Shown here in pieces: positions 7,430 through 56,784 of a DNA stretch of 64,000 nucleotides. Numbering within the stretch: the stretch's first letter is position 1; each line of letters begins with the position of its first letter. Below the pieces are notes generated by a model. That model was given only the letters and a program-made list of their open reading frames with translations. It did no database searches and was not told the origin of the DNA. The stretch covers positions 6,386,001-6,450,000 of the forward strand of contig JAYWIR010000001.1 of NCBI GenBank assembly GCA_036172245.1, written 5' to 3'. This DNA comes from Raillietiella orientalis (Eukaryota). The position numbers and the translations under genes are program-made.

Positions 7430-7700
7430 GTTGATCGGTCGGCCGGGCAGACGGAAGCAGGGGCGATCGCCATGCAGTGGTGGCGACGACTTCCCGCCCT
7501 TGACGCCTCCCATGAGTACAGAGGAGGAAAGTGGCGCGTTCCGGAGAAGGGGCAGTAAGGATGCAGAGAGATGCCTCCCGCAAAGCGGCTTTCGGAGGCT
7601 CGGCGTCAAGGATCTGCGCAACCTTCCTCTTTTCGCATCCAGGCCCGGAGGTCAGGGAACTGCTCTCAGGACCTCTCGGGCACGAGGCTGCCGTTCCTCG
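7430..7700 (+). mobile_element. Decayed L1/Tx1 RT thumb remnant
   Basis: CLPQSGFRRLGVKDLRN resembles CLPKxxGGLGVxDL. Confidence 0.5.
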
Positions 7701-13049: not shown

Positions 13050-13800
13050 ATCCCAACGCTCCTCCACCCAAACCTCGTCGGGGTGGGGTGGCGTGCGCGA
13101 GGACTTCGGCGAAAACGTGCGGTCCACGAGGGACGGAGCCTAGAGACCAGGCAGGCACGCGGGAAAGAGGGCGGGGAAGGGCCAAGACAGCCCTCCCCTT
13201 CCACTCCAGGAACGCTTACCCGCTGCCACCGTGTCCAGGACGCCTTTCCGATGCGCCATCGCCACGGAGATCCATCAGTCCGCGCGCGCACGCACTGGAG
13301 ACGCAGAGGGCCAGAGAGGTCAGTCGCAGCTGGGCATTTCGGCCGCAGGTGGAGGAGAATGTCAGCGACTCCAGTCGGAAGGAGCGCGTCTATACGTCGC
13401 TCGGCAACGCAGGAGGAAGGGGAGGGGGCACTCGCGCTTTGGGACTCCAAAAACGCTGATCCCCGCGAACCCTTCTTTCCTCCCCGTCCGCTGTCAAGCG
13501 TCCCTGGGTCGTTCGTAGCCGTCGCCCCCAGACCGGTCTGCGTCCGGGAATCCCGTCTGAGGGGCGGGCAGGCTGTACCCCTGGAGGGCTCACGAAGGAG
13601 GGCCGGAACGCGCGAAGAGGTCTCGGGGCCGACCCGCCTGAGGGCCCTCGGCATCTCAGTGCAGAGGTCAACTGCGTGGCCCCCTGTTCGCAGGAAAGCG
13701 TTGGCAGCTTCCTTGAGCTCGCTTGACCTCGCCGCGCGCGACCTTTACCACCAGACCTTTGCCCGGGGGCAGGTCTAGGCTCTGGCTTTGTCTCAACCAG
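13050..13800 (-). mobile_element. Decayed AP-endonuclease remnant
   Basis: LGATATND..LD, RRIDALL, TDLSG (~SDH) and GSPWRW occur in APE order. Confidence 0.45.
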
Positions 13801-13959
13801 CCCGCGCGTCGCGGGTACGGCTCCTCCCTCACTCCATGTCGCCAAGAGGGCGAAGCACAGAGGTCAAGAGGAGACGCCTGTGCCTCGGGAGCCGTCTCGC
13901 CTCCACCTAGCGCTCGCGGGAGCGCGCCCCCCCATCGGATCTCTGTGTCATTTGTTTGA

Positions 13960-14900
13960 AATGAAATTTTTACCTCTCCAGAAGGGCCGGCCCATCGAAT
14001 CTGGGAGGCGTGGCAGGGCCAGAAAACGAATTCCGTAGGTGGAAGGCGGCCTCGCCACAGCATCTGGGGAGGTTGTCTGGCCACTTGCGTGGTGGTGATT
14101 GCACGCGTCTCCACCGCTTCCGGATCGGACCGGCTTCGAGCTCACCCGCCAGCGAGAGTCCCGAGGCCCACCTTAAACTCAAGGGACCCCCTTCGAGGGT
14201 CCCTTAGAGCGGCTTCTCGCCCGCGGCCCAACCTGATCGCCTCCACAGTGAGTCCGAAGAGCACAGCCTCTTCCTCTTCCCGGATGCTTCCGGTACCTCC
14301 AAACAAGACGAACCCTTGGTCTGGCCGCTGTCTCCCGCGCGGTCGCAGCGCTCAGGAGAGTCTTCCGCTCCCGGAGTCAGCCCGAGGCTCCCAGCGGGGG
14401 CTGCTCCGGGGGAGCGCGCCCTGTGGGCGGTCGGTGAGTCCAGTCGCCGCCGCCGGAGTAGCGCACTCGGGTCGCATCTCGCAGCCCAGCATCGGGACAC
14501 TCGCCAGTGTCCCTCCCTCCTTCGCTTGGAGTTCGTCCTCCTCTTCGGTGTTCCCCCTGCTCCTCCTTCTCCTGCAAAGGAAGCCACACCCTCTCTCCGT
14601 TAGCTGCCAGGACAGCCAGTCGCTGAGGGGTGTTCCCCCGCGGAACTCTACCGCGAATTCCTTGGGTCCTTCAGGGTCCAGGCTGGGAAGCCCAAGGAAA
14701 ATCAGAGGAGGATTCCATGCGATCCGCATCTGCCGATCAGCCCAGGGTCCTTTCTCCTCGGAGCGCGACCGCTGCCGCTTCCAGCACTGTAGCCGATTCT
14801 TCCCCCTAGTAGGAAAATGGATAATTCGCGTGTGCTGGAAGACTCGCGAGAAGAGAATGCCGACAATACCGCCAGTCTCCTTGGCCACCAGCGTTTGAAT
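13960..14900 (-). mobile_element. Decayed non-LTR ORF2 C-terminal remnant
   Basis: RPECATP zinc-finger-like segment, then GFVLFG..LTVEAIRLGR, in broken frames. Confidence 0.35.
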
Positions 14901-21950: not shown

Positions 21951-22164
21951 GGGGAATCCCGAAGGATTCCTTGATTACTGGAAGGGACCCCGGAGGGTCC
22001 CCTTCCAAACCCGGCCAGTCGGCGGGGTTATCCGGTTTCTGGTTTCCACCAGTGCCGCATCCCGAATCGGCCAGCCGGCGTCATCCTGTTGGAGAGGACT
22101 CGAAACCCACGGTGCCCCCTATATCCACCCCCCACCCCCCATTTCTAGATGTCGATCCTTCCCC

Positions 22165-22255
22165 TGGGAGGGATTCGAACCCGCGACGCTTGGTGCCGCA
22201 CGCTGAGGCCGGCAGCCTCCCGGCCATCAACGCGAGCTCGGCAAGACGGCTTGCA
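22165..22255 (-). other. tRNA-like/SINE-head remnant (Pol III B-box)
   Basis: The minus strand reads GTCGCGGGTTCGAATCCC (T-arm/B-box) with a weak A-box-like segment upstream; no full cloverleaf is visible. Confidence 0.3.
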
Positions 22256-22619
22256 GCATCCGCTGCTGATCCCCGGCTCTCGTGAAAACCTGGGGGTCGT
22301 TCGAGCTCCCAGCGAGTTACATCATCCAGGAGGAGGAGTCGCCGCCAAGCGTCTCTAAAGTCCGTTTGCAGGAGGGGTCCCCCAACTGATTAATTTTAAC
22401 ATTTTGAATTAAAAGGTAATATATTATATACTAACAATAAATAATTGATATAAAAAACATTTGGGATTTAGTATAAATCAAAGAATACTTTAATTCACTT
22501 TCGAGATTTTTTATAAATAGTATATTTAAAATCAGGTATAAAATTAATATTATTATGTAATGAATAAATTATGTATATAAATATTTTTATGCTACATAAT
22601 AATATTGAAATCGTCGTTC

Positions 22620-23460
22620 TTCAGGTCAGTGTAGAGAAAAGTTCCTCGCCTTCTTCGGGGTTCCGCGCGAGGATCTGTGGATCCGTGTGCGAAAGGGAAC
22701 GCTTCCCGCAGGATTCGACGTTCTCCTCACAAGACGGGAGCAATCCCGTAACCTCTGCCCCAGGCCTCCGCTCTCCTCCTTGGCCAAACTCAGACATTGC
22801 CGGGCCTTCTTGCGGGGGTGGCCACGAGACTTGCTTCGGGTGCCACCTTCTCGAGACCACCTCTGGTCTTCCTCAAGGATTCTCGCTGCCTGGACCAGAG
22901 GTCACGCGTTCCTTCGGGCTGAAGGCCCTTCGTCCCTAGCGACCCAGTGACCTTACCACAGGCTCCATGCTTTCCCCACCTCGTTGGCGCGTCACGCTGT
23001 GAAGACGAAAGACCGATGGGTCTCATAGTCTCCGCTGCGCGGCGGGCACTTAGCGGAACAGCCCGTGGGCTGTTCGCAGGCCGACCGCGCGCGAGAAGGC
23101 CGGCCTCCCTTCTCCTGCCGCTCCATCAACCCGAGGAGCAGGCGCAAGCACTCGGGATCTGCTGCCGCTCCTTACTCCGCGAGGCGGACCGGGATCATCC
23201 TTTCTGTCTCCCGGACGACGGTGTCCACCCTTTATCTTCTGGACAGCAATCGTCTCGCATTCCTCGCGTGGCTGAGTCCGGGGACTGCTGCTCGCTCGGA
23301 GGGACCTTCCCCAATACGTTTCCGGGTGCTGAGAGGAGTCGACAACCCCCCCCCCCGCCCCTCCCGCCGCCGTCGGCGCCTCTGTCTGAGAGGCACTTCG
23401 CTACTGCACGTCACCTCTAGCGGCACCCGTGACATCTGGCGGCATCTCTTGTAACTGTAC
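22620..23460 (+). mobile_element. Decayed zf-RVT and 3' region of a non-LTR element
   Basis: DLWIRVRKGTLPAG and CGGGHETCFGCHLL in adjacent frames. Confidence 0.5.
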
Positions 23461-24249
23461 AGTTGGGAAAGCGGAGTGCGCTACATTCAGAGACCCCAAG
23501 ACGTTTAGGGAATGGGAAGGGGGAAAGTAGGGGTTGTGCGGAAGAGCACCTTACCGAAAAAGCTTGCGCTTGGTGGTCTCGTCGGTGCGCGGAGGGGCCT
23601 GCATTCCTCCTGTTGGCCCGAACCCGCTCTTGTCGCAGAGGCACGCCTTCAGCGCTTCCGGTTGCTGCCTCCCCTTCCTCTCGGACTGCTGCCGTGCCTC
23701 TCTGAAGGGCGATGGGGGCATCACTGGGTGCTGCCGCTTTCCCATCCCAGCGGGGGGAGGGGACCAGAGCGAGCGGCGTCGAGCTGCGCGCGCGCGGAAT
23801 ACGAGGGGCGGTGGCACGGCCGCAAGAGGAGTGCCTCGCAGCGGCAGTCCACGCAGCCTTTCGGGTTTCCTTTCGGCGGCCCACCAAGTGTGGTCCCTTC
23901 GAACGCTGCGCCTCTGTGCGCCGCCCACGGACCAGCGCTGGAAGCTCCCTCCATTTCTGGGCGAAAGAACGCGCTCGTGGCCGGACCACGACACCAGACC
24001 CGCGGTTCGGAGGGCTGCTCCCTGAGCGGGTTCTCTCCCAGGACGGTCTGCTGCGGAGTGGTCTGTCGTTCCGGAAGTGGGGGAAGGACCGCCTCCCGCT
24101 GGTCCGAGGCTCGCGCAACGCCGCCGACGCACCACCCGGTGTCGGTGTTTTTCGTCCGGCCGCGAAGAGGGTCGTCGTCGCGTTGCCAGCAACGCCAGCA
24201 GCTCCGGCCTCCCTTGGAGATACCCACGTGGAGGAGGCGAATCCCTGAC

Positions 24250-25050
24250 GTCTCTCCAGATGCCGTAGCATCTCCGCAGTCAGAAACTCAGCTTGGAGAG
24301 CCCCCCCCTCTCCCGTGCAGTAAAAGGGGGGAGAGTCGGGGCGTGCAGGCGAGCAAGGAGGGACCTCCCTCCGGGACACCCAGTGGTCAGCTGACCTATT
24401 CTGCGCCTTCCTCCACGCGAGTCCCTCCCCGAGGAGCAGTGTGGACTCGACGTGACGAGTCTGTTCCCCCCCAGGGGCTCCTCCTCCGGCCTCGGTATCC
24501 AGCAGGAGAAACCACACCTCTCCCGGCCACGCTCCTCCAGCAGCGTCTGTAGGGGAGGCCGACTCCGGGCTCCGCTCGTCCGTCTGGAGGCCTCGTTCCC
24601 CCCGGAGGCACGGCCTCGCAACCTCGAGACCGGCTGTCCAAGTAGTGGTTCCGCGGCGGAGGCCCTTCCGTTTCTGTCCCTATCTTCGGGACCTCCCTAC
24701 GTCCGGGAAGCATCCAGAGGCACAGGACCAAGCCTCCCATGCCGACCCACCACGCTCACCGTTTGGGACGCGCAGGCGCCGTGGTGAGACTTGTCGAGGA
24801 GCCCTCAGAGATGTCGAGGGAGAGGCTTCCCCGAGCGCAGAGAAGGGGAGCGGACTGTTGGACGGTCGTTCGTCCTTGCGGGAGGCCGCTCAGCGTAGGA
24901 TGGTCGTCGCTCCGGGTAGCGAACCGGATAGACTTTCCGGATGCTGGGGAAACCCGGAGATTCTTCTCTCGGGAAACCAAGTCGTTTCTCGTACCATCGC
25001 TCATCTCGACATGGGCCGGGGGCGCTCCACGTAGCTGCGCTGCCTTAGTG
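24250..25050 (-). mobile_element. Decayed RT remnant
   Basis: SGLPQGR..LSLDIS and CWIPRPEEEPLGG (thumb-like). Confidence 0.35.
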
Positions 25051-25199
25051 CGAAAAAAAAACCCTGGTCATGTTTCCCTCACTCTCCAGTTCTCATCCCG
25101 ATTTTTGAGCCATGCAAAGGCGCCGCACTGCCTTATCTGATCGAATGTTCCGCTTAGAGGATTCGCCCAGTCGCTTGGTCCTGCAACCATCTTTTCTCC

Positions 25200-26038
25200 C
25201 TTCTATTCTTCTTGGTGCCTCGACGCCTGCCAAAGAGGGACTTCCCTGATCCACTTGAAATCCTTCATCTCCAGCGAACGCTGGATGCCCCCCAACCAGC
25301 ATTCTGCTGGGGCGAGCTACAAGGAATTCCAGTGGAAGATGTGCAGTGGCCCCCAGTTCTCTCGGACAGCAGCACCCTCCCCTTAAAGTGGCAGCTGCTG
25401 CTGCACTGGGGTCCCCCGTGCAACGCCCGCCAGCATCGCTGGCCACGGGTGTGTTTGGGAATCCGAACCGCGGCAGGTGCGGGGAACGTGAATCCCTCCC
25501 GCACTTGCAGGTGGACTGTGTTTCCCTCCGGCCCCTTTGGGGACGCTTTGCCGCGACTCTAGGAACCCCTCGGCGACAACTCCAGGGACGCTTTACGACC
25601 CCTCCTCGCACGCGACGCGCTTCGGCCAGCAGCCTCGCTAGCAGCTCTCTGAGCCACGCTGGAGGAGGACACAGCGACAGGGGTGCCACATCCACTCTGC
25701 CGTCCTCTTCACGAGGATGGCAACAGAATGGCCCCACCTGGAAAACATCATGCAGCAAGAGCTTGCCGGCATCCTGAAGAGGATGCAGAGGACCGCCCCA
25801 AGCAGGACGTGATCCCTTCCTCCCCCTCAAAGTTTACCGATTTCTGTTTTTTTTATTTTTTTTCTTCTTTTTGTTGTCCCCTCTCTTTTGCTGCCGTGGT
25901 GGACCTCACCGGTCTGCGAACCGGTAACCCGGCAGACTCCCGGTAAAACGCACGTAGTTGGAGCACCGGCCCAACCACATTCTTCTGCAAATGTTCATTT
26001 TTATTAAAAAAAATCTCCCCGGCGTACCCGGGTGAGAA
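25200..26038 (+). mobile_element. Non-LTR retrotransposon zf-RVT plus 3' end, family A copy 2
   Basis: Clear nucleotide similarity to 16330-17090 and 500-822; zinc finger RCGERESLPHLQVDC..LW; MQQELAGILKRMQRTAPSRT*; short A tract at about 26006-26013. Confidence 0.8.
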
Positions 26039-26049
26039 TCCAACCAGCA

Positions 26050-26500
26050 TTCTGAGGCTCTGAAAGAGAGCCGCCACTTTCTTGTGCTCGGTGGCGCTTT
26101 GGTTTCCGCTCTTCGACGTCCTCGACCACAGAGAAGCACGTAGGCAAAGTAGATTTTCTTCCAGAGAGAATCTACTTCCAGAGAGGGATCCTTCAATTTC
26201 GAAAGATTTTGGGTTAGGCATGCTCTTCGAGTCTCCCGGGGGACATTGGAATCGAAACACGAGCGTTCTTCGGGAGACTTGAGCTTTTTCCTCTTGGGTG
26301 CCCCAGAAGTATTCCTTGAACTTGCCACCTAAGCACACTCTGGAGGTTCAACGGACGCTCCCTTTTATAAGGTGCAGACGCCTCAGCTTGCCCAAGGTCA
26401 ACAACGACAATAACCTGGTCAGGATGCACCGAACACGGTCGCGATGAACACAAAATCTTTAGAAACCTGAACGAGCGGACCCATTTCTTATCGAGTCAAA
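26050..26500 (-). mobile_element. Decayed RT thumb remnant
   Basis: KFKEYFWG..VSRRTLV..MPNP resembles FLWxG..V.W.TL..GGLGMP. Confidence 0.5.
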
Positions 26501-26799
26501 GTGCCATCTTCGAGAGTTAACCACCAGTGCTAGTTGCAACGATCTCTCATTTCTCTGGGTTCGTGCTTCTTCCACTCTGAGCATCGTTCATCTTCATTTA
26601 TTCATCCTTCTAACTTTTTCCTTCGCCGGTCAGAAGGTCGCAGCACCTGATCGTCCTGTTTGTAGGAAGTGGTCATTGCGATGAACACTTTCTTTTTGGA
26701 TGAAAGGAAGGCAAAGTGGAGTCTCGTCGTAGCCTGCAGGGATACATATCTGACCTGTCATTAGTTCTGTTAATGATGTAATTCAATCATCTACGCCCA

Positions 26800-28130
26800 T
26801 TCACTGCCTTCAGATGTGGTTCTGAAGAGATCGACCTGGAAACCAAAGCTTGCAGCTGCACTTTTTTTGCTTTTTCATTTCCTCCCGCACGGCACGAGGG
26901 ATTTCTCGACCAGAGAGATCCTTGCATCAAGCCCTCCCCTACACGAGACCTCTAGGATCTCAATAAAGAAGTTGTTAGAGCCTCCAAGATGTGTTTCGAC
27001 GGCAGGGCAGCTCCAGGCAAGCTCGCGTCCAGACCTTCCTGCGTGTTCCTCCGCTACTCCTACCTCCGGGCCTCCGAGGAACGTGCCATCCATCCTCCTC
27101 CGACGGAACAGCGCTGTACCGACACGTTCAGTGGGGGCTCTGGGCACTCGAGAGGTGCTAACCTTCAGGACCGGTCCCTTCTTCGAGTGAGCCGTGCGCC
27201 TCCTGCTGAGCTGCCACCGGCCTGCTGTTGTGACAACTGTCAGCGCCTCGTGCGCGGAGAGGAGACTTCCTACAGGATCTGGAGAGTGCCACATAGGGCG
27301 CCATGACCTAGCTCGCGCTTGGTCTTGTGGCGCCGGTTCTGCTTATCAAATTCACCCCTTGATGGCTCTCAGGGATCCGACAGTCCTGGATTCAGCGTTG
27401 AAGCAAGCCGGGCTCTCACCCGTTTGAAGTCAGTTCGAGGTCATGCGGGGCAGCAAGGGCTCCCCGATCAATCGCTCTACCAGATGAGACTGCTTTCCTC
27501 TTCCGCTTCGACGAGAGCCAGCTCCGCGGGGAAGACTCCGGGGGAGGGGGAACTAGCTACTGAGTGACAAGACCCGAGTCAGGAACTGTCGCCGGACGCC
27601 ATCGGGGCTGTCCTCTATCAGTCGGTTTAGTGACTGTGCAGAGTCCCCTTCAGATGTTTCCGCAAAGAGTCCCAGTCCCCTCCCTGTCTCTCTCTCTTGT
27701 CAGTCCCTAAAACCTGAGAGTTTCATCCGTCGAATATGACCTGAGAGCCTGCTTTATAAAGCATGACCTGAGGAAAAGATGGGATGGTGTTGAAGGGGAA
27801 GAGCGAATCCTGCGAGCACATCGATTCTGGGAGAATCGGACCGGGGCTCTGAAGAAGATCTCTGGGAGGAGATGCCGTTTTCTCCATCCCGGATACTTTC
27901 CCCCTTCTTCTCTGTTCCATCCGAGGGATCATCTGTCCCCACTCGGGGAGGCCATCTTTCCCACCCCTTCCTCTGTCTCCCCCATGTGCCCAATGATGAT
28001 CCACCCTCTCACGAACGCCTGGACAACTTGACCCAGACGTAAATGCTCATCATGTCTTCCTGAACTAAAGGAGAGCACCAAACAGGGGCGAGTAGGATGG
28101 AATTTTCCTCTGCGCTCCTGCACAAGCCCG
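26800..28130 (-). mobile_element. Internally deleted non-LTR remnant immediately 3' of the SMC1-like gene
   Basis: APE-like WIIIGHMG, SPRIDVL, SSGHAL, then LGHGALCG (zf-RVT-like). Confidence 0.45.
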
Positions 28131-28195
28131 AAGAGCTGGTGATTTATTCATTTAGAGACGCAAGAGGATGCTGGAGTGGTGGACCAAGGCTAGAA

Positions 28196-31100
28196 TCAGA
28201 GCGCGTATGGGGTGAGGTCGAGGCTGAACATCTTCGTGGAGAAGCTCCCGTCTCCAGACGCCTGCGGGAAGACAGCCACCTTGAGGAAAGACTGTTACTC
28301 GACGCCTACCCTCCCGGTCACTCCCAGAGTCCAGTCAGCGGTTCGAAAATGGTATTCCTCGATGGGTACCAGTATAACGTCTTCGGCTTTCTCCATAAGG
28401 TGACCGGACACCCTCTTCTGGTTGCTCTTGTCCATTGACGAGTCGATGCCATCCAGCAGGAGGAAGGGACAATTGGCAGCCCTGAAAGGCGCCGTCGTTA
28501 CAGAGGAAGGGAAGGAAGCACACTGACCGGTGGCATGCCAGGAGTAGGGCCAGAATGGCGACGGACCTCTCACCCCCGGACAATCCTTCAGCACTCCAAT
28601 ACCTCTTGCCCGAAGGAACGCACTCCAGGGTGATTTTCCCCAAATAGGGTTCCTCCGCGTTATCCGGGGTAAGGTTTGCCGTGGACGCTGGAGCGGTCAA
28701 TTCCTTAAGGGAAATGCGCGTGTCTCGAACTTCGAATGCCTAAAAGATCGGTCACCTTGTAAGTGCTCGAGAGGATGTTTTGGACGGCCTCCAGGCATCC
28801 CACGAAAGCCGCTCGCCGCTTCTCCCGCGTCCGGAAGAAGCGGTCTCGCACAGTGCGGAGAAGGGACTTGGCCTCCTCGAACTCCTTGCAGGACAGGCCC
28901 ATCTTCCCCCTTGTTTCGTCCAGCTTTGTTTTCAGCTGGAAGTTGTAGGTCTTGCAGAGTCCGACGGGACGAAGCCGACGGTGAGTCTCTCCCTTCCTTG
29001 CCTCCGGTTACGGAGGCACTGACCTTGTCCATCGAGGGACATGCCTTCTGCAAGGATTCCCGTGACTGCTTGAGGTGGGCTTGCATCTCCTCGACTTTCT
29101 TCTCGAACTGGTCTTCCGATAGCGAAGCCCGCAAGTCTTCCGGGAGGTCGCTGTAGTCGAATGCCACGGTCCTAGAGAGAGAAGGGAAAAGGCAGCAGGA
29201 AGTCTGGACGCCCACTTACCCTTGGGAGTCGTCCGGAGACTCGGAGCCGGGACGGAGGATCCTGTGACCGCGGTAAAAGGGACCCGCGATACTGTCCTCC
29301 TTCCAGCGGTGGACCAGCTTCGAGCGCTCTGCGACCAGCTTCATGAGCCGCTCCGCCAGCACCGAAAGCTCGTCGTTGCACCTCGAGATGCGACCGCCAA
29401 GGTTCTGCCTGTCCTCGCTCAGCTACGGTGGCACCGCCTCCCGCCGTCAGAGGGAGGCACGCGGCGACGGTTCCAACCTGCTCTAGCTCGAGTTTCAGCT
29501 CCTCCTGAATCCTTTTCGCAGCCTCCATGCGTTCCTCCAGAGAAGATACCTGCAGCTGCAGGTCGAGGTCCTTGGACACCTTGTTCTTCATCTCCTCCCT
29601 ACACATCTCGATCTTCTGCTCCAGGTCCTCTTTCACCCTGAGGAATCCGCTGATGGTCTCTGGAGAGGAATGGGGGAGGGTGACCCCGTCGCACCTAGGT
29701 CAGTTACCGGAGAAGGATCGAGACGACTCGTACTCGAGCTGGACGCAGAGCCTGTTGTGCAGATCTTGCAGGTCCGTGCGAACCGTGGCGGACGACAGAC
29801 GATCCCTGAAGAGGAAGGAGGGTCCTTTCGCGCAGTCCCCGGTGGAGGGGGAACGGAAGGGGAGGGAAGGACGGCCCGACACACCTGATGCAGGTCGAGT
29901 TCAGCTGGTCGACGCTCAGCAGGTTCGCCTCCTCGCAGAACTGCCGGAACCAGTCGCGTCTCTCTGCGTCCAGACACTCCTTCAAGGCCTGCAGGCGCTG
30001 CCGGTGCTCCGTCATCTCCTCGGTCGTCCTCTCGATCCTGAACTGGCAGAGAAAGATGCCGAGTCCCCAACGGAGCCTCCTCCCCTCCCCTCCCTCCCTC
30101 ACCTTGCAGTTGTTGATCTCCTGCTCGTAGAACCCGATCTGCACGCCCACCGCCACGATCTCTTCCTCCTGAAACACGAAGAGGTGAAGGCTTCGCCTGT
30201 GCGGGAGGGGGGGGATGTGAGGCTTCCTCACCAGTCTCGCCTCCTCGGACCTCAGCTTGTCGATTTCCTGCCTGAGGGAGTCCTGTGACATCCCGACGTC
30301 GACGTCCTCCCGGTGCTTCCTCAGTGCCTTCCTAAGGGCTTCGCATTCGCTCGCCAGCTTTTTCTGAGTTGGCGCAGCCGCGCAGAGATCCAGCTCTCCG
30401 TCCCTCCCCTTCCTCTTCTCACCTTCTTGTCGTTCATGGGGACGAGGCTGCCCATCTGCCAGTGTCTCGCGCGCTCCAGAAGCTCCACCTTTCCGCCCGT
30501 GATCAGCCCACTTTTCTGGAAGTGCACTCCGTCGAGGGTCACCACCTAGGGATCGGAGGAGGAGGAGGGGAGAAAGGCGGTCGGCTGGCTGCCCAATGCC
30601 GCTTGCGTACATCGTGGCGCCTCCCGTCGACCTCCCCGTACGCCTTCCTCATGGGCAGCTCCCCTCCGCCGACGCACACTAGCGTATCCCCCGTGAGGTG
30701 CAGCGCCACGGAGCGCACCGAGGGGCACTCGAAGCGGACCACGTCGAAGAGCAGCTTGAACTCGGTGCCGTGGCTCTCCGCCCTGGGAAAGAGGCCACCG
30801 TCTTCCCACAGCCCTCGGGTGATCCCAGCGAGGTCGCGTCGTGACCGCGCCCATCCCGGCGACCTCCACCTCAGCCTCTCGGAAGGAGGTCTCCAGACGA
30901 TGTAGTCGATGGGCAGGAAGGTCTGCGGCGAGCACTGGAACTCTTTCAGGTACTTGATGCACTTCTTGGCGGTCGTCACGTTGTCCACCACGATGTTCTC
31001 CATCCTCGAGCCGAAGATCCTGGTCACGGCCAGGTTGTAACGGGGATGCACCGGCTGCACTAGAGTGACCACGCGTCCCATCTGCAGAAGAAGGGCGGGT

Positions 31101-34100
31101 ATGTGTGTGTCCTGTGAAGCGCCTCCGGAGGCGATGAGAGGAAAAGAAAAGGGCTAGGGTCTTCCTGAGGACGGACTCGCACCCGAAGAAGGAAGGAGCC
31201 GGAGGCCAAGTGGATGGATGGAGGTCGAGGATGACGTACCCCCTTTCCTCATCACAATGATTTGATAAGGGTGACCCCTTATCGAATCACCTGGAAGCTC
31301 GGCTTCCCAGTGCGTGTGCCCGTTAGGCGGCCGGCAGCTACGAAGGTGCTGTCCAGAAGTTGAAGAGAGGCGTGGTTCAGGGTCGGTTTCGCGGCGCTCC
31401 TCAGCAGCCGAAGACACCCCTGGACAAGAGACTCCGGGGCCGTCTTCCGGGCAAAGCTGGCCGAGCTCTATCCCGTCCGTTCGTGCTGCCGCACTTATGC
31501 GGCAGGAGGACGTGCGACCCCCGACGGTTCCCTCCCTCCCTCCTCCCCCTTCCATTTCGGATTCGGAAGTTGCGAGAACCTCAGGAGTGCCACATAGGAA
31601 ACCCGCCTCGGGCGGGGGACCCGACGAAACGCTGGCCGGCTCGCGACGGCGGACAAGAAACCGCGTGGCGGAGGGGGCAGCACGGAGGGGTCATTCTTAC
31701 CACCCCGGGGAAGTGGGATCTGAGCTTCTCGAGCAGCTCGGTGCTCTTCCGGATGCGCTGCTCCTCTTCCTGCTTCAGGCTGAGCTCTTCAATCTGGAAC
31801 TCCAGGACCTTGAGCTCGCCCTCCAGGGAGTGGAGTGTCTGCTTGCACTCTTCCTCTTCCCTGAGCTTCTCTGCCGCCCTCTCCAAATTGAGCTGACTTT
31901 GCCTGGAAGGAGGATTGCAGGGGGAAGGAAAAGGAGCTCCGGTCTTCGGGGGACTACCTGATCTTCTCGCTGATACAGAGCTTCCTCTTCTCCATCTCCT
32001 CTTTGGAACTGAGCTTCAAGGTCACCAGGTCCCTGTTCTTCTTCTTGTTCCTGATCTCGTCGCTCAGGGAGAGCTTGGCGTTCTCGTAGAGTCGCTTGGC
32101 AGCGGCGAGCTCGTCCATGGCGTCCACGTGGCTGCAAGCGAACTGGTGCTGCAGCCTGCAGTATTCGTCGTACTGGGTGAAGGGAGAGGGGGGGGCGTTC
32201 ACAGCGGCTTGCGGCGGCAGGAGGAGGGACCAACCTGGTTCGCAGTCAGGCTGAACGACCTCTCGCTCCGTTTGTACAGCTCGTCGAGGTCTGCCAGGTT
32301 CCGCTCGATCGCGGCCAGCTCCTCCCTCATCTCCTCCACCTCCCTCTTGTTCCTGGCGCTCTCCTCCGCTTGCCGCTCGCACTCCGACTGGACGTCCGTC
32401 TTCTTGTCCAGCAGTTCCCTCTCCCGCTCACGGATGGTGCTCAGCATGTTCGCGTTCTCGTTGATGCTCATCTTCTGCAATCGGGCCCCGGGGGTCAGCC
32501 ATCCCAGGATCCGGAAGGGGAGGGGGGTCGCGAGAAATCAACCGCCGGTGGAGCTTCCATGCGGATCGGAGATCGCGAGCGGAGGGGCGTTCTGGAGGTG
32601 CCCGGGCGGAAAGTGGCACGGTTTCCCAGCGTTCGGGGAGGCCCTCCCCCACTCCCGAAAATCGAAAGCATGGGAAGAAGAGGAGGATAAGGTGACCCCG
32701 ATAAGAAGCGATGGGGGGGAGGGAGGAGAGAGGCTGTCCTCCTACGTGGCACCGATCTTTCCCGGTCCCCCGGGCTCGCGCTGAACGGGGGGACGGCCAG
32801 TCTCGTGATGCCGGGGGGACCGCCAGCTTGCGTCCCGGAAACAACCGTGAAACACACCGTCCGACGTGGGCGAGGGGAGCAGCGGCCGAGGCGGAAGGTT
32901 CCATCCCGGTGGGCCTCCGCCTCGCCTCTGATCTCATCCGCACCATCGCGACGAAGGTCGCGCGACTTCCGCAGGAAGCGGCACAGCCCAATGGATGGTT
33001 TTGTAACGGACCGAAGGGCGATTCCCGGGGGAGGCGTTCATGAGGCGATCCGCTCGTTGGCGGCGGGCGCACCGTATGGAAGGGACGGTGGCGTCGGAGG
33101 ACTTTCGTCCCTCCCAAACGAGCACCATCTCGAGCGAAGAAGGAAGGCGTTTCCCTCCTCGGTCCCCGCGCTGTGAGCGTGGCTGAACGCCCGAACGCGG
33201 TGGAGGCCCTGCACGACGCGGATTCGCGCGGCGCTGCAAGGAAAATGGCGGCCATCCGCTCATGCGAGCCGGCGGCCAATCGGCCCTCGTGCGGCTGCTG
33301 CGGACGAAATTTCGATTTTGCGGCGCTCTCTCAGCTCTTCTGAGAAAAGCACGAGCCCAAACTCGAGCAGGTCGGGCTCCTGCCCACATTTTGTTCGGAT
33401 GAGGTGGCTCGAGGAGATGCATCTCAGCGAGGACATTGGTAGCTGAAGGTACAGAATCGTTTCGATCGACCGAGTTCCAGCAAAGTTTCTTCGCACCATA
33501 AGCTACGCAGTGAACCTTTGGATTTTCCGCTTTTTCGTTAGGCTGAAATTCCGAATACATGGCGTTTCAAAGCACGCCTTTTACAAATGCTGTCGCATTA
33601 TAAAACGCGTAGGGCCCCCTATAGCGCGGAGCTCGTACCACAGGGGGGCCTGCCGCGTGTTTCTCGTTTTCCTTCCGGCTCGCAAAGGTCATTGCGATTC
33701 ACCGTTCAAACGCTTCGCAGAATCCGTCGAGGGCGCGTTCCATTCTGCTCCGCGATCGCAGCGCAGACGCCCCGTCAAAGCACTGTGAGGGAAACGTCGC
33801 GTTCGCAAGACTTTCGTGTTTTCAAGTCTTTCCGAGGGAACCGTGCGCTGTTGCTTCGGCGAGACTCTCTACTCACCAGGAATCGAAGCTCTTCTTCGAT
33901 GCTCGCCATCTCCCTTTCCGAGGAACCGTGCTTCTTCCTCCTCACCTTGATGGAAGCCTCAACGTCTCGCAGTTGACCGGACAGCTCTCCGACCGTTTCG
34001 TGCAGCTTCGAACTTTCTTCGTCGAGCATCTGGATGTTTCTTCCCACGTGGTGCAGTTGGAACAGATAGAAAGCAACCGATTCGGTCACCTAGGAAGGGG

Positions 34101-34904
34101 AAGAGGGGGGGGAAAGGCAATATGTGAAAAGTGAAGACTGAAACAGGTGAGGTGATTCTTTCTTGAGCACTTCCACACAGGCAGGAGAACCACCTCCGCC
34201 GACGGTGACGCAACCGGGAAGCGCGCCACTCGGAAATTCCCACCTGTGGTTGCAGATCGCGAATTTCCCGGTGCCCAGCAGCAGCCGCGGATGTGTTGCA
34301 AGAAGAATTTCCCCTCCCTTCGAACGCGACCAAAGTTCCGCTCGCAGTTTCCCGGTGCCGTTTGCTGGACACCACGCGCTCATGGGCGACTGCGCAGAAT
34401 CGGAAAGGAGCGCTCATCGGTGCTCATGGGTTCCTGAGACTCACGAGACAGGAACCAAGTTCGCCTCGCTCAGATGACGAAAGGGGAAGAAAGTCCGGGA
34501 TCAGAATCCCGCATGCTCTACATCCTGTAGAATTGCTCAAGCAAGTGTGGGGTTTTCCACCTCAAAATGTGGTAACGCTGATTCCGCAGGGTGCGGAAGC
34601 ACCAGCCCCGTGGTTAACCGGATTGCCCCTTCGGGCGGGCTAGGACGAGAAGACGGAAAGCTTCAAAAACTGCAGCATGGACCGAGTTTTTCTTTTCTTT
34701 TTCCCTTCCGATACTGACACACATTTCTAGACAGTTCCCATTTCTTTACAAGGAATATCGGTTGTGCAATCAGCGCCCATTTTCCTGCCGACGATGTTTA
34801 CAACTTTTCAATTCTCCGTCTCCGAATCGTCATGTCCTGTTAGAAAGGGAAGCATCCCGGCGAATGGATGAACCGACGGAATCGACAAAGTGAGGAGCAG
34901 AAGG

Positions 34905-34938
<34 letters not shown>

Positions 34939-37900
34939 AGGGGAAAGAGGAACGACCCACATTCCCGAGAAATGAGCACACACTGCCTTCCTGCTGCATC
35001 ACACAGGGACCGAAAGCTGCGGTTTCGGTCAGCAACCGCCGTGTGCCGTTCCCCCTGAGCTTCCGGCCCTAAGGCCTATTTTTGCGCGGCCAAGCGCAGT
35101 GCTCGGGTTGCGTCTCTTGGAAAGATACCTCATGAAATGGAAAGAAAAAAAGAGAGAGAACGGGTCCGTCGACTTTCTTTCCGTCTTTGGCGAAGAAGTC
35201 CCTTCAGCCCTACTCTTTTGACGTGCTTGTCCACGCATCACCCACGTTTCGAAGCCGCCACCGTTCCTGGCGACCACACAAAATCCGGAGAGTGCCTACC
35301 AAAACGCAGAGAAAGCACCGCGGAGCCACCGCCCAACGAGGGCATCCATCAACAGCGCAGATTCCACAATGCAGTCACAGAGAATCATCCATAATCGGCT
35401 TCTAATTAGCACCCCAATTAGGATGGCACTGTAAATAAATGAGGAGCGAGCTTCGTCCCAGAGAAGAGAGGAAGAAAGACGCAAGCAGCAGCAGAACTTC
35501 ATCCAGCACTCACAATGTTGTCCTCTATGTCCTGGAGCTTCTGGAGCTCCTCGATTGCCGCAGTCAGTTTTTTTTTCTCGTTGAAATACAGCTTTTTACG
35601 CGTGAAGAGTTCGTTGATGCTCGCTGTAAGACGTGCAATCTCGCCGTTCGAATCATCGTAATCCTTCTGAAATTCGCATGATCTGAAATGCACAAAGAAC
35701 ATGCGGTCAGGTTCTTGGAGGTATCTAAACTGCAAGACTCGTGACGGTTACGTTGGAGTCATTTTATTGCTGGCGTGGTCACTCGGCGTACATTACATTA
35801 CATTAGGTTTTCCACGCTTACAGAATTCTGGGAACGAGCTACAGAGATCGTAAATCACTGTTAAAGTGTGCAGTGAGAGCGGCGAGGCTCCACTTTGCGC
35901 CAATAGAAGGAAACTGGATACCGTCGTGTACTCGAGAGATCTCTCTATCCTTACCAAAACTTCGATGCATTAATCTTTTACATTTGGTTTTCGTTTTATG
36001 GGTCTTTTGTACAAAGGAAAAAGGTTCTTCAGCTTTATTCCAAATCAGTGCTTCCGTTACACGTGCTAAAGGAAAGACTCAAAGTGGTTTTCAAGCGAAT
36101 AAAATCAACAGGATCCGGAAGGGACGAAAATTCCATGAACCACACCCATCAAAAAGCATTCTTCGGTGTTTCCTCGCATTGGTTTCGAACTTGCATGCAA
36201 CTTCACAAAGGCAAATGCAATGCGTACATCGTGCCACTTGAGCAACTCAGCTTTAGATATACATGCTTTTGAGACTGAAACTCTCGTGAGCCAGCATTGA
36301 TCAGGCGGCTCTAGCATCATTGGATCATGGGAAAAAAACGAATGATCCCGTTTAGGTGCTGAGATCTCTTCTGTTTGAAAAAAATTGCCCGTGCCACAGT
36401 CATCCAAGTGTCAGTAATTCAAGCAGAAGGAAGCTTAGCGAAGTCGAAGCTGCGAATCTCTCGGGAGAATGATCCCCTGGGCTCAGCACAATGCAGCGCA
36501 TGATGCTGAATCCAAAAGTGGCAAAAATTCGAGAAGAACAGTTACCAGCTTTGCCCGCTGGGAAGATCTTAGAGAAGTACCCTCTGTAATCATTTTTTTT
36601 GTTCGATCGTAAAGCACTGCTCATTGGAAAATCACTTGGTCTGTGTTGCTTAGTCTTTTCTCCTCTTGCCTCCGAGCGAAGGGGAAGACCGTTGCATCTC
36701 TCTTGCGACTGAGCGTGCACACTGTGGTTCATCCACGATGATTTTTTTTTTTTTTCTTTCAAAGCAGGTTATTATCTTAAAAATACTAAGGAAGGATCTT
36801 TATCACCGGTTTGCATTTCATTTGAGCTTTTGGTTCAACATCGAAGCGGCCTGCACTCTATTTGGTTCAGGGAGCTCTTTGAGCATCGGAATTGTCCCCC
36901 CCCCCACTCCCCGGAAGGTCGCAGAGATGCGACAGTTCCAAGAAATGATTTCTCTGTGTGTAAAAGTGATCAGGCAAAAGGACGTAACATTTGCTTCCTT
37001 CGTGCGATCGTGGAGAAAGTCTTTCGTGTCGAAATCTCGTCAGCGACTTCCCATTCATCTTCCAAATAAGAAACCTTTTAAAAATTCTTCTCCGTTTCCC
37101 GCCGAAGGCGTGGCATCCTGATCGAATTTTCGTCTTCTCATCCACCACCATCTTCTGCACTTTGATTTCGTGCCCACGTGATCTCATGAACGAGTAGATG
37201 TCGCCGCAGTTTTCCAAAACTTGTTTTCTAAAGCTGGAATCGCTTATTTGCTGATGCAAGCTTTTGGTTTGATGGCGGTGATGGTGCTTAACAACGGAAT
37301 ACGGCCACGAGTCTACAGCCTGCTCTTCCTCATTTCTTACGGAGAGTTCCTGCAGAGTACCTTGAAGAGTCCTCTAAAACTCAGTCTTGGAACGAGTTTG
37401 CGTTTCACAGATGGCACTTGTGGTGGATCTTGGGGCTGTCTTCCGGGTACTCTGCAACATCAGGGACTGAAGCTTGAAACCGACGAAGTATGCTTCTTAT
37501 AACAGCTGCTTGTGCGTAATGAATAGCTTCCTGTTCTCAAGGCACTATTTACTAAAACCTGAATACAGATGGATGCGGAGATTAAGGGAACCCAAAAACC
37601 CTCGAGATTGTACGGCTTTCCTGGAGCACTATCTGAGGTGAACATTTGAATGAACTTCGGTGTCCAAGATGGTCAAATCTTGGAAATGCACTTTGGTTCG
37701 AGATTGATGAGAAGCTTTCAAAAGAATCTCCCTTGGAAATTAAAGTTATTGATAATCAAGGCGACTTCGAACCGGGACAGTGTACGCCATTGCTCTGATC
37801 AAGGTATACCTTCCGAGTCAAGCCATGGGCAAACGAGTCTGCGTCAATTTGAAATAAAGGCATCTCTGATTTTGCAGAGTAGTGGACATGCGAGTCTTTT

Positions 37901-39610
37901 TTTTTTTTTTCAAAAAAAAAAAAAAAAAAAGCTTTCACCATAGCTTCGGACACTTAATTTCTAGGCATTGGGATCCTAAAAAATTCCTTGGCTGCAAGCT
38001 ACTTCTGACAGCTCAACAGCCTCAATCAATACTTGACAATGTGTAACGTATGCATATGTGTGTGCGAGTAAATTTATTTTTTACGTTTTCCTGGAGGAAA
38101 GAATCTATTGGAAACGTACCCAAACAATATGGAGAGAAAGCGCATGAATTAGTTATGCGTTTTTTATTCATACGTCACAAATACGCACTCTTAGTGAGCA
38201 CAAGTGATGCCAAGTGATTTTTACTTTATTTCTCTTACACTTCGCGAACTGCCTATTTATAAATGTACCTATCACTAAATCCTTGATTGTTTATTTTTGC
38301 TCTTAATGATGCATGATCTTGTAAGTGTTTGCCTCAGAACCAGCATTTCCGGCATGCTAATGCCTTCAAATATATGAAGCAATCCGTAGATTAACTTTGT
38401 GCGTTGCTTCGATTAAAGATTAATCAGAATCCAAGGAATGATAGGTCAAGAGTGAAGGGAACTTGTACTAAAGCACTGGAAAAACACGGTGCACATGATA
38501 CGAATTTGTGATTCAGACGCGTGGGCGGACCAACTGTTAACTGACGTATTTCAAAATAATGTTCAGCTGTCCTAACTCTAATCGGCTCCACTCGACCTTA
38601 ACGTTTAGGATAGCTTATGGTCATTTCAATATTTAGGATGTGTTTCAAGTTTCACGAGCGTTTCCTTTTCAGGATCTCAAGGTCTTCAGTTCTGGACATG
38701 CCGCCTCCTTCGGCTCAATCGAGTGATTTACGTTTACTATGCACCATAACTATGCACTATATGAACACAGAATGAGCATTAACGGGATCTTGATCCTTTT
38801 CGAAATACCAAGTTGAGTACAATGAAAACAGTGACCAGTTTGCAAATAAACAAGAGGAGAAAAAGCAAAAAAAAAAGGAAATAAAAAAAAATATCATGAT
38901 TTCACATCAAATTTTGAAATATGCGGAATACAAACTTATTCTTACCCACTTATGCTCTCTAATAAAGAACAGAGTTCGTTGTTGAAAAATATGTTTTCTA
39001 AAACTTCGATAGAGCATATGGCTTGGAAAGCTTTAACATGGATTTGAATATTCATGAACTCGTTCAGATATTCTTCATAAATTACCTCCTGGAAGAAATC
39101 TTAAAATGATTGTTTGTTTGAAAGAATCTCGGAATTAACATTTTCATGAAAACATACAGTAACACGCCAGAAAACATTTTCTTTACATCTGCAAATATAA
39201 ATAATTGTGGATGTGCACAACCTTGGAATTAACTTCAAATTTCGATGAGTTATGGCTGATAAGCCTAGAGAATTTTTTTTGTCTCCCGCTTCTCAACGTG
39301 CAAGTCAAAGAAACTGATGTTTCATAATGTGGCCATTCATTTTTTGCCCGCTTATTTACGAATTCCTCAAAATTGTGCCTTTCTGGTGTGGTGTAGCATC
39401 CCAAAACGAACTTTAAAGCACATAAAAAATTAGATTTACCTGAAGACTTTACATTCACAACTGTTATTGAAATAGAGTTGGTCTACCTGCTCCGTTCGGA
39501 CCGATAATAGGTAATAAAGTTTTGCAATTAATAATGACTTTGTTTTTTCCATAAAAACTTTTGAAATTTTCAATTTCTACATAATACACATTTCCGTCAG
39601 CTTGATCCAT
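28196..39610 (-). CDS. SMC1: SMC1-family cohesin subunit, divergent full-length paralog (22 exons, about 1208 aa)
   Basis: Exons: 39610-39487, 39439-39222, 39088-38946, 35682-35514, 34089-33877, 32474-32235, 32172-31958, 31902-31701, 31081-30870, 30782-30611, 30545-30423, 30363-30232, 30168-30103, 30042-29885, 29805-29708, 29659-29478, 29422-29220, 29171-29024, 28950(or 28935)-28756, 28703-28528, 28481-28310, 28261-28196. All are GT-AG with consistent phases, total 3627 nt. Motifs: N-terminal VEIENFKSFYG, Walker A IIGPNGAGKSN, SMC1-type hinge (GRVVTLVQPVHPRYNLAVTRIFG..CIKYLKE..TFLPIDYI; VTLDGVHFQKSGLITGG), NAEEPYLG..CVPSGKRY, signature LSGGE, C-terminal LDLTPY. AATAAA at about 28143-28148. 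Confidence 0.93.
35760..37900 (-). mobile_element. Decayed L1/Tx1 RT element inside SMC1-like intron 3
   Basis: FPRFDHLGH (~KAFDxVxH), RGRIPLLS, KGFLFG, LWHG, CGTG..EE..DHSFF, and AATAAA near 35765. Confidence 0.45.
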
Positions 39611-46954: not shown

Positions 46955-48960
46955 CTACATTCGGAAAATGCCAAAAGTTGTCGGAGGGATGGGTGCATTG
47001 AGAGCAGCACTCAAGCTCAAACCCAATACTTTTCTGCTATCTACTGGATCAATAATTCCATCATCCCAAAGTCGTGCACTGGAAAAATATGGATCCCCTT
47101 CCATCTCAAATCTTTCAAGAATAGGTTTCTTCAATGCCTCTTCCTCTTCCATGGTCCACTAATGTCTGTGAGTATCTACCACTATGGTCTCACTGACCTC
47201 TTTATTTTCCCGAAGTCTCTGTTCACGACTAATCTGCACAAGAACATTGGCAGCCTGTTCACCTCCCATCACTGATATACGTGCATTGGGCCACATATAC
47301 AGAAACCGAGGACTATAGGCTCGTCCACACATTCCATAATTGCCTGCTCCATATGAACCGCCAATCAAAAGTGTGATTTTAGGTACTTGAGCACAGGCCA
47401 CAGCAGTTACCATCTTGGCTCCATGTTTTGCAATCCCACCAGCCTCTGCATCCCGGCCCACCATAAACCCTGACAGCTTTATGAAAGACCTGCCTCTTGA
47501 TAATTATTATCCTTTCCTACCAGTGATGTTTTGCAAGAAGATAAGAGGTATCTGGCGCCGACAACACAATTGTACAAAGTGAGCTCCCTATGGCAAAAGT
47601 GAATTCAGTGGTCATTTCAATTGGACTTTTACTTTTAATGCAGCTTCAGCAAACAAAACACCATTATTGCCTATGATGCCAACAGCATGACCATATAGTC
47701 GAGCAAACCCAGTAACTAAGGTTTCTCCATAACGCGCTTTGAATTCAGTAAATTTGGAGCCATCAAAAATACGAGCTATAACCTGAGCATGCCATTCTTG
47801 GATGACAGTTCGGGAACTTTTTTTCTCTAACCTCCCGCACATCATATGTGCGCTTCAGATTGTCTCCCACTATTCCATATAGCTCCTCTGCAGGAAGGAC
47901 AGGTTCCTCTGGTGTCTGAACAGGACCACTAGGTGGTGGTTTCTGTCGATTCAGGCTGTCTACAATTCTTCTTGCCAAATAGAGTGCATGTTGGTCATCT
48001 GTGGCATAGTAATCCGTAACACCAGATACACTGGACACCAATTAATGATCCTATTCATCTTACCTACAGTGGAGATCAGCTCCACCTAGATCTTCTGCAG
48101 AAACATCTTCTCCAAGAGCAGCCTTCACTAAAGGAGGACCAGCTAAAAATATTGTTCCTTGTTTTCTAACAATGATGCTTTCATCAGCCATGGCAGGCAC
48201 ATAAGCACCACCTGCAGTACAACTTCCCATCACTACTGCTATCTGGGGAATGCCCATGGCTGACATGTTTGCCTGATTAAAAAAAATGCGTCCAAAGTGT
48301 TCACGATCGGGGAACACATCACTCTGACGAGGTAGATTTGCACCCCCAGAATCAACCAAATATAAACAGGGTAGATGATTTTGTTGTGCTATTTCTTGCG
48401 CTCTTAGATGCTTTTTAACTGTGATGGGATAATAGGAGCCACCTTTCACAGTGGCATCATTGGCAACAATCATACACTGCAATCTTAGCAATATCAGTTG
48501 AAATAATGACAAGCATTTTACCCACCCACTGACACAGCCAATGCCTGTGATTATACCCCCAGCTGGGACCTCCTCTTTTCCATACAACTGATAACCTGCC
48601 AGTTGAGATAACTCTAAGAATGCAGAGCCTGGATCAAGTAAGGCATTGATCCGATCTCGAGGAAGAAGTTTGCCCTTAGAAAGATGTCGACGAATGGATT
48701 TTTCTCCTCCTCCTTGCAGAATCTGACTAACTACTTCCTGAAGTGTTTGTACTTTTTCTTGCAACTTCTCATCATTCTCCTGCACATTTCACTGCTGAAG
48801 GGGTGACTTTCTTTTCTTTTCTTTTTACCTTGAAAACAGTGGATTCCTTATCTGCTGGGGAGCCTATGGTTATTTCATGTTCAATGTGGAAGTTGCGAGC
48901 ATTATGCACTAGTGCATACAAAATTGCTGTGCATGGATAACGTTTTATATGATAGGCCAT
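46955..48960 (-). CDS. MCCC2: 3-methylcrotonoyl-CoA carboxylase beta subunit (mitochondrial), 8 exons
   Basis: Exons 48960-48829, 48779-48526, 48483-48064, 48030-47832, 47782-47633, 47587-47521, 47469-47198, 47158-46955. Conserved motifs: [83 protein letters not shown], terminal FGIFRM. The start is taken as the first in-frame ATG; an upstream exon is possible. Confidence 0.96.
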
Positions 48961-56016: not shown

Positions 56017-56784
56017 ATGGAAACCACGGATCTGTGCGAGTTTCTGTGTGGATGCACAGACCTGGTTGATCTCAATGTACTGGAAATTTACAACAAACAG
56101 AAAGGTATTGTAAAGCTTTTGGGGTACAGTTCTTTCATGTTGTAATAGATGCGTTTGAAATTGAAGCCGATTTGACTCAGAAAACAAGAATAACAATTGA
56201 AGAATTAGATACAAAAATATCTGAAGTTAAGAAAGCTTGTAGTATGCTCAAAGACCAGATTTCCCAAACAGTAGTGATTACAAAACAAGTAGTAGATCGA
56301 AATCTTGAAGTGTCAAATGAACTGCATAACCTTCAAGAGGAAGTATTAATGCAAGAGGAGGGTAATCATTATACATAAGATTTCATAAACACTTATGCTT
56401 AGAAAATGACAGGCAACGAAAACAGCTTGAAGACTTTCAGAGATCCATTTCCCATGTTATGGAACTCTATGAAAAGGTTTCAGGAATGAAAATTCACGTC
56501 GTTGCAAGAAATAAATTGAAGATTATGTTTAATCAAGTGGATCCACATCATCCTGAAAGAATTTTTGGTGCTGAACTCCATCTAGTAGATGAAAAGAAAG
56601 AACTTTTTCAAGGTGAGATCAAGTTTTTCAGGGTGCTAGCCACAATAAATCACAGAAATATTCCCACATAGTGTATAGTCTGGACCCTTGTGATGTGAAC
56701 CCCCGTAAGTTTCCATCGCAACCTCTGCGCAATCTCATTTGGATGCTTTATACACATTTCCAGGAGAAATTTAACAGAGTTTAG
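56017..56784 (+). CDS. SPC25: Kinetochore Ndc80-complex subunit Spc25-like, 4 exons, about 207 aa
   Basis: Exons 56017-56104, 56149-56361, 56403-56612, 56672-56784 (GT-AG, in phase). An N-terminal coiled coil is followed by YEKVSGMKIHVVARNKLKIMFNQVDPHHPERIFGAELHL, matching the Spc25 RWD pattern (LGLxI..L.F.F..ID..P). AATAAA lies about 25 nt after the stop. Confidence 0.8.

Follow-up and report, generated by a model that had tools for sequence, protein, structure and literature searches.

A divergent SMC1-derived gene of Raillietiella orientalis predicted to encode a cohesin-type subunit with a degenerate ATP site

In the head dimer of SMC proteins ATP is described as lying between one head's Walker A, Walker B and Q-loop and the other head's signature and D-loop (PMC4769319). 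In human cohesin the more important site is reported to be the one in which the signature and D-loop of Smc1 face Smc3's Walker A and Walker B (Elbatsh et al., 2016; PMC4769319). How labour is split between the two ATP sites of cohesin is not settled, and until now the question has been approached only with engineered mutants, of which the study of Elbatsh et al. (2016; PMC4769319) is an example. The gene described here may offer a natural case. It lies on the minus strand of a stretch of 64,000 nucleotides (nt) from Raillietiella orientalis (contig JAYWIR010000001.1, positions 6,386,001 to 6,450,000; the whole stretch is referred to below as the window) and appears to encode an SMC1-like subunit of cohesin type in which the subunit's own nucleotide site has degenerated.

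A comparable arrangement is found in heterodimeric ABC proteins, where one half-site that lacks the Walker B Glu and neighbouring catalytic residues binds ATP while the consensus site hydrolyses it, and where the matching signature of the partner is typically degenerate too. Described proteins with one degenerate nucleotide-binding site of this kind include TM287/288, TAP1/2 and MRP1 (PMC5216877; PMC4242082; PMC7253176).

The SMC1-like gene was rebuilt as 22 exons running from 39610 to 28196 on the minus strand, the model being based on open frames, raw junction sequence and a check of every exon boundary. The start ATG is at 39610 (39610-39608) and the stop TGA at 28198-28196, and the coding sequence of 3612 nt comprises 1203 codons and the stop with no internal stops. 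All 21 introns begin with GT and end with AG; 17 of them are 46-133 nt in length and the remaining four are 619, 1402, 1424 and 3263 nt. The initial annotation of this DNA, made from the bare sequence, had proposed 22 exons spanning 28196-39610 with an open frame of normal SMC1 length, and the independent rebuild, at 1203 amino acids and with no stops, agrees with it. An exon chainer that used composition only found the coiled-coil exons, missed those of the heads and hinge and added two spurious mini-exons; the hand-checked model was used instead.

The state of the nucleotide site was scored column by column in a MAFFT alignment of the model with 27 non-redundant SMC1 homologues. In exon 21 the Walker B Glu is replaced by Gly (E1136G) through a GGC codon at 28450-28448 on the minus strand, and CCCTTCCTCCTGCTGGATGGCATCGAC around this codon is translated as P F L L L D G I D, continuing S-S-M-D. 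All 25 homologue rows with coverage here have E in this column, where the model has G. A pattern scan for the Walker B and D-loop in 152 fetched proteins gave 29 matches, every one with E (29/29), and alignment of exon 21 to the Walker B of Pyrococcus furiosus SMC again places the G opposite an E. The Q-loop is altered as well. In the stretch VKAFQAICSIEVLENI of exon 3 the Gln is replaced by Ile (Q141I, codon ATC at 39010-39008; Q in 25/25 homologues) and the Gly that follows it by Glu (G142E, codon GAA at 39007-39005; G in 23/24 homologues). The alignment through this region has no gaps and is anchored on both sides, by K133 and by E148-x-I150. Gln137 of the model was considered as a candidate for the Q-loop Gln and rejected, lying five residues too early, and a single odd Q-loop pattern match among the fetched proteins was set aside as a false position.

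Other elements of the head are preserved. The Walker A motif GPNGAGKSN is kept across the exon 1/2 junction with all of its conserved columns retained, the signature LSGGE is kept at 28583-28569, and the Walker B Asp (D1135) and the D-loop residues D1138 and D1142 are also present. Further changes near the site include A1139S, A1140S, L1141M and four columns in the H-loop area (1159-1165). Many of the 28 conserved columns that the model has lost in all lie around its own nucleotide site (Q141, G142, E1136, A1139, A1140, L1141, 1159-1165). The GGC codon, the loss of the Walker B Glu and Q-loop Gln beside an intact Walker A and LSGGE, and the divergence of the neighbouring residues had all been put forward by the initial annotation and were recovered here, the count of further altered conserved columns close to the site being at least 10. 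It had also raised the prospect of an alternative exon with a canonical Walker B; none was found when a profile built from the 27 homologues was searched against every open reading frame (ORF) of at least 15 amino acids on both strands of the whole window, nor was a canonical Q-loop exon, and exon 21 was the sole match in the window to the Walker B part of this profile. Of the features of an active SMC/ABC-type ATPase head, the model has the Walker A and LSGG(E/Q) motifs and lacks both the Walker B Glu and the Q-loop Gln. Its catalytic residues are lost in one half-site while its own signature is intact, which is the pattern of an ABC dimer with one degenerate site. Since two of the features that define an active SMC ATPase head are missing, the product would be better labelled an SMC1-derived subunit with a degenerate site than a canonical SMC1.

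The relationship to SMC1 is apparent along the whole length of the model, in which the five-part layout of N-head, arm, hinge, arm and C-head is complete and collinear with SMC1. The best blastp alignment joins residues 6-1201 to residues 2-1219 of SMC1B from Gulo gulo (27% identity, E 1.6e-108), which also has the top summed score. Exons 9-11 contain the Pfam SMC_hinge domain (PF06470) at 54.5 bits against a cut-off of 22.5. When the hinge was searched against the PDB, human SMC1A ranked first (E 1.2e-20), followed by yeast Smc1/Psm1 (1e-8), prokaryotic SMC (1e-6) and SMC4 (2e-4), and SMC3 was not among the matches. The signature exon, exon 20, likewise has human SMC1A as its best PDB match (E 1.9e-10) and gives the same ranking. 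The SMC1 assignment made at the outset is borne out by these two regions, for which SMC4 is far weaker, and by descent the protein is placed in the SMC1 family, nearer to SMC1 than to SMC2, SMC3 or SMC4 as judged from PDB ranks. The arms show the heptad periodicity of hydrophobic residues expected of coiled coils (z 5.8 for arm 1 and 4.6 for arm 2, with 0/500 shuffles as high), and the heads and hinge show none in the same test. No proline occurs among the 340 residues of arm 1, even though the DNA is about 60% GC (guanine plus cytosine).

The effect of these changes on the two ATP sites can be proposed from the motifs. ATP binding at the subunit's own site is probably retained, because the model keeps GPNGAGKSN in Walker A, the Asp of Walker B and a conserved Arg. 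Hydrolysis at this site would be hardly possible, because the Walker B Glu has become Gly, the Gln-Gly of the Q-loop has become Ile-Glu, and there are substitutions in residues that follow the D-loop and in the H-loop area. In work on human SMC1A the E1157Q form is described as a low-activity mutant and Q137 as facing ATP and Mg (bioRxiv 10.1101/2022.06.24.497451). The intact signature and D-loop Asp would complete the site of the partner in the engaged head dimer. This partner, which is not encoded in the window, is presumably SMC3 or an SMC3 paralogue, and only its site would turn over, while ATP held at the dead site could act as a glue or as a regulator of head engagement. The predicted result is an asymmetric head dimer with one degenerate and one consensus site, like that of heterodimeric ABC proteins. 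The half-site that the protein keeps would be the half that serves the more important site of human cohesin, and it fits the published asymmetry.

Of the interpretation first offered for this gene, the intact, full-length SMC1-type gene with a degenerate site of its own has stood, and the asymmetric-cohesin role remains plausible. On balance we think it somewhat probable that this is a working gene, maintained by selection, for a 1203-residue SMC1-derived subunit of cohesin type that has a degenerate site of its own and forms an asymmetric head dimer. We infer in addition that the subunit would bind ATP without hydrolysing it, would pair with SMC3 and would be a copy additional to a canonical SMC1, possibly with a germline or meiotic role.

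Several features of the coding sequence bear on whether the gene is maintained. The reading frame has no stops, compared with 50 and 26 when the spliced sequence is read in its two alternative frames, and in 1000 shuffles of the bases within exons the mean was 51 stops and the minimum 33, so that 0/1000 were open. The GC contents of the three codon positions (GC1/2/3) are 0.58/0.36/0.81 over exons 4-22, against a GC of 0.63 in introns 6-21. Among the columns that are near-invariant (at least 90% identical among the homologues) 83/111 are kept by the model, including those of the hinge glycines G642, G649, G653 and G654. The marks of a pseudogene that were looked for, namely frame disruptions, lost splice sites and lost coding periodicity, were not found, and the gene does not appear to be a long-dead pseudogene. 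Since its integrity, heptads and kept columns persist despite deep divergence, selection seems to have acted over most of its history.

The divergence, the greatest of any SMC1 in the set, is uneven. The identity of the model to the other SMC1 rows, which come from plants, fungi, amoebae and animals, is 21-26%, compared with medians of 0.27-0.34 for most of these rows to one another. The hinge has a median identity of 0.39 to the homologues, against 0.43 among pairs of homologues; the corresponding values are 0.31 against 0.44 for the N-head and 0.34 against 0.52 for the C-head. The heads have diverged more than the hinge. In the tree the model lies on the animal side, set with arthropod rows (support of 95 in the Shimodaira-Hasegawa-like approximate likelihood ratio test), in a placement that its long branch makes unsure. 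The three vertebrate SMC1B rows form a clade of their own with 100% support that excludes the model, and the grouping expected of an SMC1B orthologue was not seen. A HMMER search with the hinge returned 660 proteins at E<=0.001, and a word-index search with the hinge exon gave 2 matches among 9 candidates.

A number of observations count against a maintained subunit with an asymmetric head dimer. At 3.19 changes per column, where the median is 0.75, the terminal branch of the model is the longest in the set, and the model keeps the lowest share of near-invariant columns, 75% against 82-99% for the other rows (leave-one-out); both features are also compatible with a relaxation of constraint that would end in loss. 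The HMMER hinge search, made against 1.84 billion cluster representatives, revealed no orthologue, the best matches having 46-56% identity over about 70 residues, and the word-index search with exon 21 gave 0 matches among 5 candidates. That the gene is a working one is judged from features of its sequence. In yeast, Smc1 E1158Q is reported to give neither cohesion nor viability (PMC4769319); an SMC1 without its Walker B residue may therefore not support normal cohesin loading, and a functional cohesin is not a given.

Parts of the gene model also weaken the case. Exon 3, which carries the Q-loop, has weak homology to the SMC1 profile (E 0.036) and, searched alone against the PDB, had no match; the same search with exon 2 alone also had none. 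The support for exons 12, 13 and 16 consists of frame, splice sites and heptads: among the window ORFs exon 13 had no match to the profile and exon 12 a very weak one, and exon 16, like exon 6, matches the opposite arm, as coiled coils can, both being placed by frame, splice sites and heptads. An alternative in-frame path joins exon 2 to exon 4 and bypasses exon 3. In this path exon 2 reads through its GTTGTG donor, and over 39221-39187, to a stronger-looking GTAAAG donor after 39187, which is joined to 35682, and the read-through peptide, VVHIHNYLYLQ, resembles the canonical sequence at the same place. An isoform that skips exon 3, and with it about 48 residues of the N-head, is therefore possible. 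Such a form would have no Q-loop region, and therefore the nucleotide site is not rescued by it. Lastly, a DNA contig of run X1 over 28162-28378 (the exon 22 region) has 0 differences from the window, and the 8 contig pieces of X1 listed, of 12 records, are all identical to it, X1 possibly being the assembly's own sample; the pieces listed leave both 28401-28801, with the GGC codon, and exon 3 uncovered.

The long branch, the lowest retention of conserved columns (83/111) and the missing catalytic residues are what would be expected of a duplicate under relaxed constraint, or of a young unexpressed pseudogene, that has drifted so far without acquiring a stop or frameshift. Such drift must nevertheless be reconciled with a deep divergence through which 1203 codons without a stop, 21 GT-AG introns, codon-position asymmetry, heptads and a proline-free arm have come down together. 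The losses are also uneven, sparing Walker A and the signature as well as the Asp of the D-loop and the glycines of the hinge, and the identity of the hinge is near normal. A drifting duplicate is unlikely in our judgement, and it is the alternative that survives best.

Next in order, and also unlikely, is the explanation that this gene is the sole SMC1 of the organism, and that the cohesin of the lineage either runs on one catalytic site or is evolving very fast overall. The window contains no second SMC1, a canonical copy is only presumed, and the lineage is poorly sampled, with no close relative found for either the SMC1-like gene or its neighbour. This neighbour, which lies upstream on the same strand at about 47162-48788 (minus), encodes MCCC2, the beta chain of methylcrotonoyl-CoA carboxylase (Pfam Carboxyl_trans, E 4.3e-58), with one 48-nt intron read through in frame. 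It argues against rapid evolution of the lineage as a whole: the MCCC2 stretch has 78% identity to bivalve MCCC2 and 69-78% to most other animal rows, a normal degree of conservation by which the lineage does not appear to be generally fast-evolving. Because MCCC2 is normally conserved, a canonical SMC1 is presumed to be present elsewhere in the genome. The identity of the model to any SMC1 also falls below the medians of most plant, fungal, amoebal and animal SMC1s among themselves, and loss of Smc1 Walker B function is reported as lethal in yeast (PMC4769319).

It is improbable that catalysis has been relocated, with Glu142 or another acidic residue serving as the base or as a Mg ligand in a site that is atypical and not dead. 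The attraction of this explanation is that G142E adjoins the residue that in an ordinary site makes contact with Mg and with the attacking water, a role described for the Q-loop (bioRxiv 10.1101/2022.06.24.497451). Several further elements of the site have changed, however. We also know of no precedent for such a relocation in SMC proteins. That the key codons are an artefact of assembly or sequencing is very improbable. The X1 pieces listed reach neither 28401-28801 nor exon 3, but two bases must be altered to turn Glu into GGC, a minimum of 10 further conserved columns around the site differ too, the Q-loop change is in another exon 10.5 kilobases (kb) away, and the 8 X1 pieces match the window throughout, although X1 may be the assembly's own sample.

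Were the maintained, asymmetric subunit to prove correct, it could constitute the first case in nature of an SMC complex that has a degenerate ATP site built in, with a dedicated SMC1-derived subunit, evolved in an animal lineage, that binds ATP without splitting it and a cohesin that runs on the SMC3 site alone. This wider claim is made tentatively, and our doubt slightly exceeds our belief. No description of a natural SMC protein with a degenerate ATP site was found in open-access full text, supplements being outside the scope of that search, nor was any paper found there that joins the term 'degenerate ATPase site' with SMC. If true, the complex might serve cohesion in the germline or in meiosis as a slow-release or static form, or might restrain canonical cohesin. 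Nature would then offer a parallel to the engineered mutants of EQ and asymmetric-site type, as well as to the degenerate sites known from heterodimeric ABC transporters. A naturally selected SMC1 of this type would reveal which half of the motor is dispensable in vivo, and would supply a protein already suited to testing, by biochemical and structural means, how an SMC functions with one site. The features of the gene are collected in Table 1.

Table 1. Features of the SMC1-like gene, with positions given in the window.
Feature	Position	Strand	Content	Match
Exon 1	39487..39610	-	Start codon and first part of Walker A (G37 at 39502)	SMC1 profile 4-38, E 7.9e-7; Pfam SMC_N positions 4-35, 17.3 bits
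Intron 1			47 nt
Exon 2	39222..39439	-	Walker A completed (GKSN, down to 39429); donor AAG/GTTGTG	SMC1 profile 34-117, E 2.2e-13
Exon 3 (Q-loop exon)	38946..39088	-		SMC1 profile 111-160, E 0.036
Intron 3 (5' of exon 4)			3263 nt
Exon 4	35514..35682	-	Start of coiled-coil arm 1	SMC1 profile 160-216, E 1.8e-4
Exons 5-8	34089-33877, 32474-32235, 32172-31958, 31902-31701	-	Rest of arm 1	SMC1 profile, in order: exon 5 220-286, exon 7 370-440, exon 8 452-524
Exons 9-11	31081-30870, 30782-30611, 30545-30423	-	Hinge domain	SMC1 profile: exons 9-10 at 514-617, exon 11 at 636-676; E 4.5e-36
Exons 12-15	30363-30232, 30168-30103, 30042-29885, 29805-29708	-	Coiled-coil arm 2	SMC1 profile, in order: exon 14 742-786, exon 15 800-826
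Exons 16-19	29659-29478, 29422-29220, 29171-29024, 28935-28756	-	Coiled-coil arm 2	SMC1 profile, in order: exon 17 894-941, exon 18 975-1021, exon 19 1020-1082
Exon 20	28528..28703	-	Intact signature LSGGE	SMC1 profile 1082-1143, E 1.1e-18
Exon 21	28310..28481	-	Walker B and D-loop PFLLLDGIDSSMD	SMC1 profile 1146-1201; Pfam SMC_N 159-212, 23.8 bits
Exon 22	28196..28261	-	C-terminus and TGA stop	SMC1 profile 1205-1219
AATAAA	28143..28148	-	Likely polyadenylation signal, 48 nt past the stop

The base composition of the window changes from about 35-44% GC (36-52 kb) to 58-66% (below 34 kb), and the switch falls inside the SMC1-like gene. Exons 1-3 have 31-36% GC with flat GC1/2/3 values and exons 5-22 have 54-69% GC, the introns following the same trend; GC3 is 0.31 over the first 100 codons and climbs to about 0.9 in the central part of the gene. 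The regions 1-14000 and 22000-34000, at 58-66% GC, contain long open frames rich in Pro, Arg, Gly and Ala on both strands, which have the appearance of composition noise and not of genes. Near 34.9 kb and 40.5 kb there are simple repeats of CT type. At 56070-56668 on the plus strand there are two coiled-coil-like open frames, the second of which weakly matches Spc25 (PF08234, 17.2 bits, below the cut-off of 22.3) and may belong to a kinetochore SPC25 gene. An Rfam search of the window gave 0 matches.

The closest described systems share different parts of this arrangement. With canonical SMC1/SMC1A, as seen in the human structures 6wg3, 8roc and 2wd5, the model has its overall architecture in common, at 1203 amino acids compared with 1215-1266, together with the Walker A, the LSGGE signature, the Walker B Asp and the D-loop Asp. 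It differs from human SMC1A in having Gly at the position of E1157 and Ile at that of Q137, in addition to the low overall identity to SMC1s of 21-26%. Vertebrate SMC1B, the meiosis-specific SMC1 paralogue, is a divergent second SMC1 in a specialized cohesin, and the model is likewise a divergent SMC1. The vertebrate SMC1B rows, however, keep DE and FQG, whereas the model has neither and falls outside their clade.

Additional SMC1 copies are also known among invertebrates. Daphnia pulex is reported to have two SMC1 genes (SMC1A/SMC1B) whose origin is independent of the vertebrate duplication (PMC2680839). These and the hymenopteran 'SMC1A-like' proteins provide a precedent for extra SMC1 copies restricted to a lineage. 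The divergent 'SMC1A-like' rows of ants and wasps among the homologues keep the Walker B Glu and the Q-loop Gln, both of which the model has lost. Two of the ant proteins, from Pseudoatta argentina (P0106) and Cardiocondyla obscurior (P0119), have the signatures LSDGE and LSGAE, with DEGD after Walker B; their Q-loops read PQG or SQG and the Walker B Glu is kept. These signature variants would weaken the site of the partner, the reverse of what is proposed for the gene in the window.

The residue changed in Walker B is the same as that altered in the engineered EQ mutants, yeast Smc1 E1158Q and human SMC1A E1157Q, which are expected, from the accounts given of them, to bind ATP and hydrolyse it at a very low rate. 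The change in the model differs from these laboratory mutants in being natural, in being to Gly and not to Gln, and in being joined by the loss of the Q-loop Gln and by other changes. Heterodimeric ABC proteins are membrane transporters and not SMC proteins, but the pattern in which one half-site has been lost is alike in the two.

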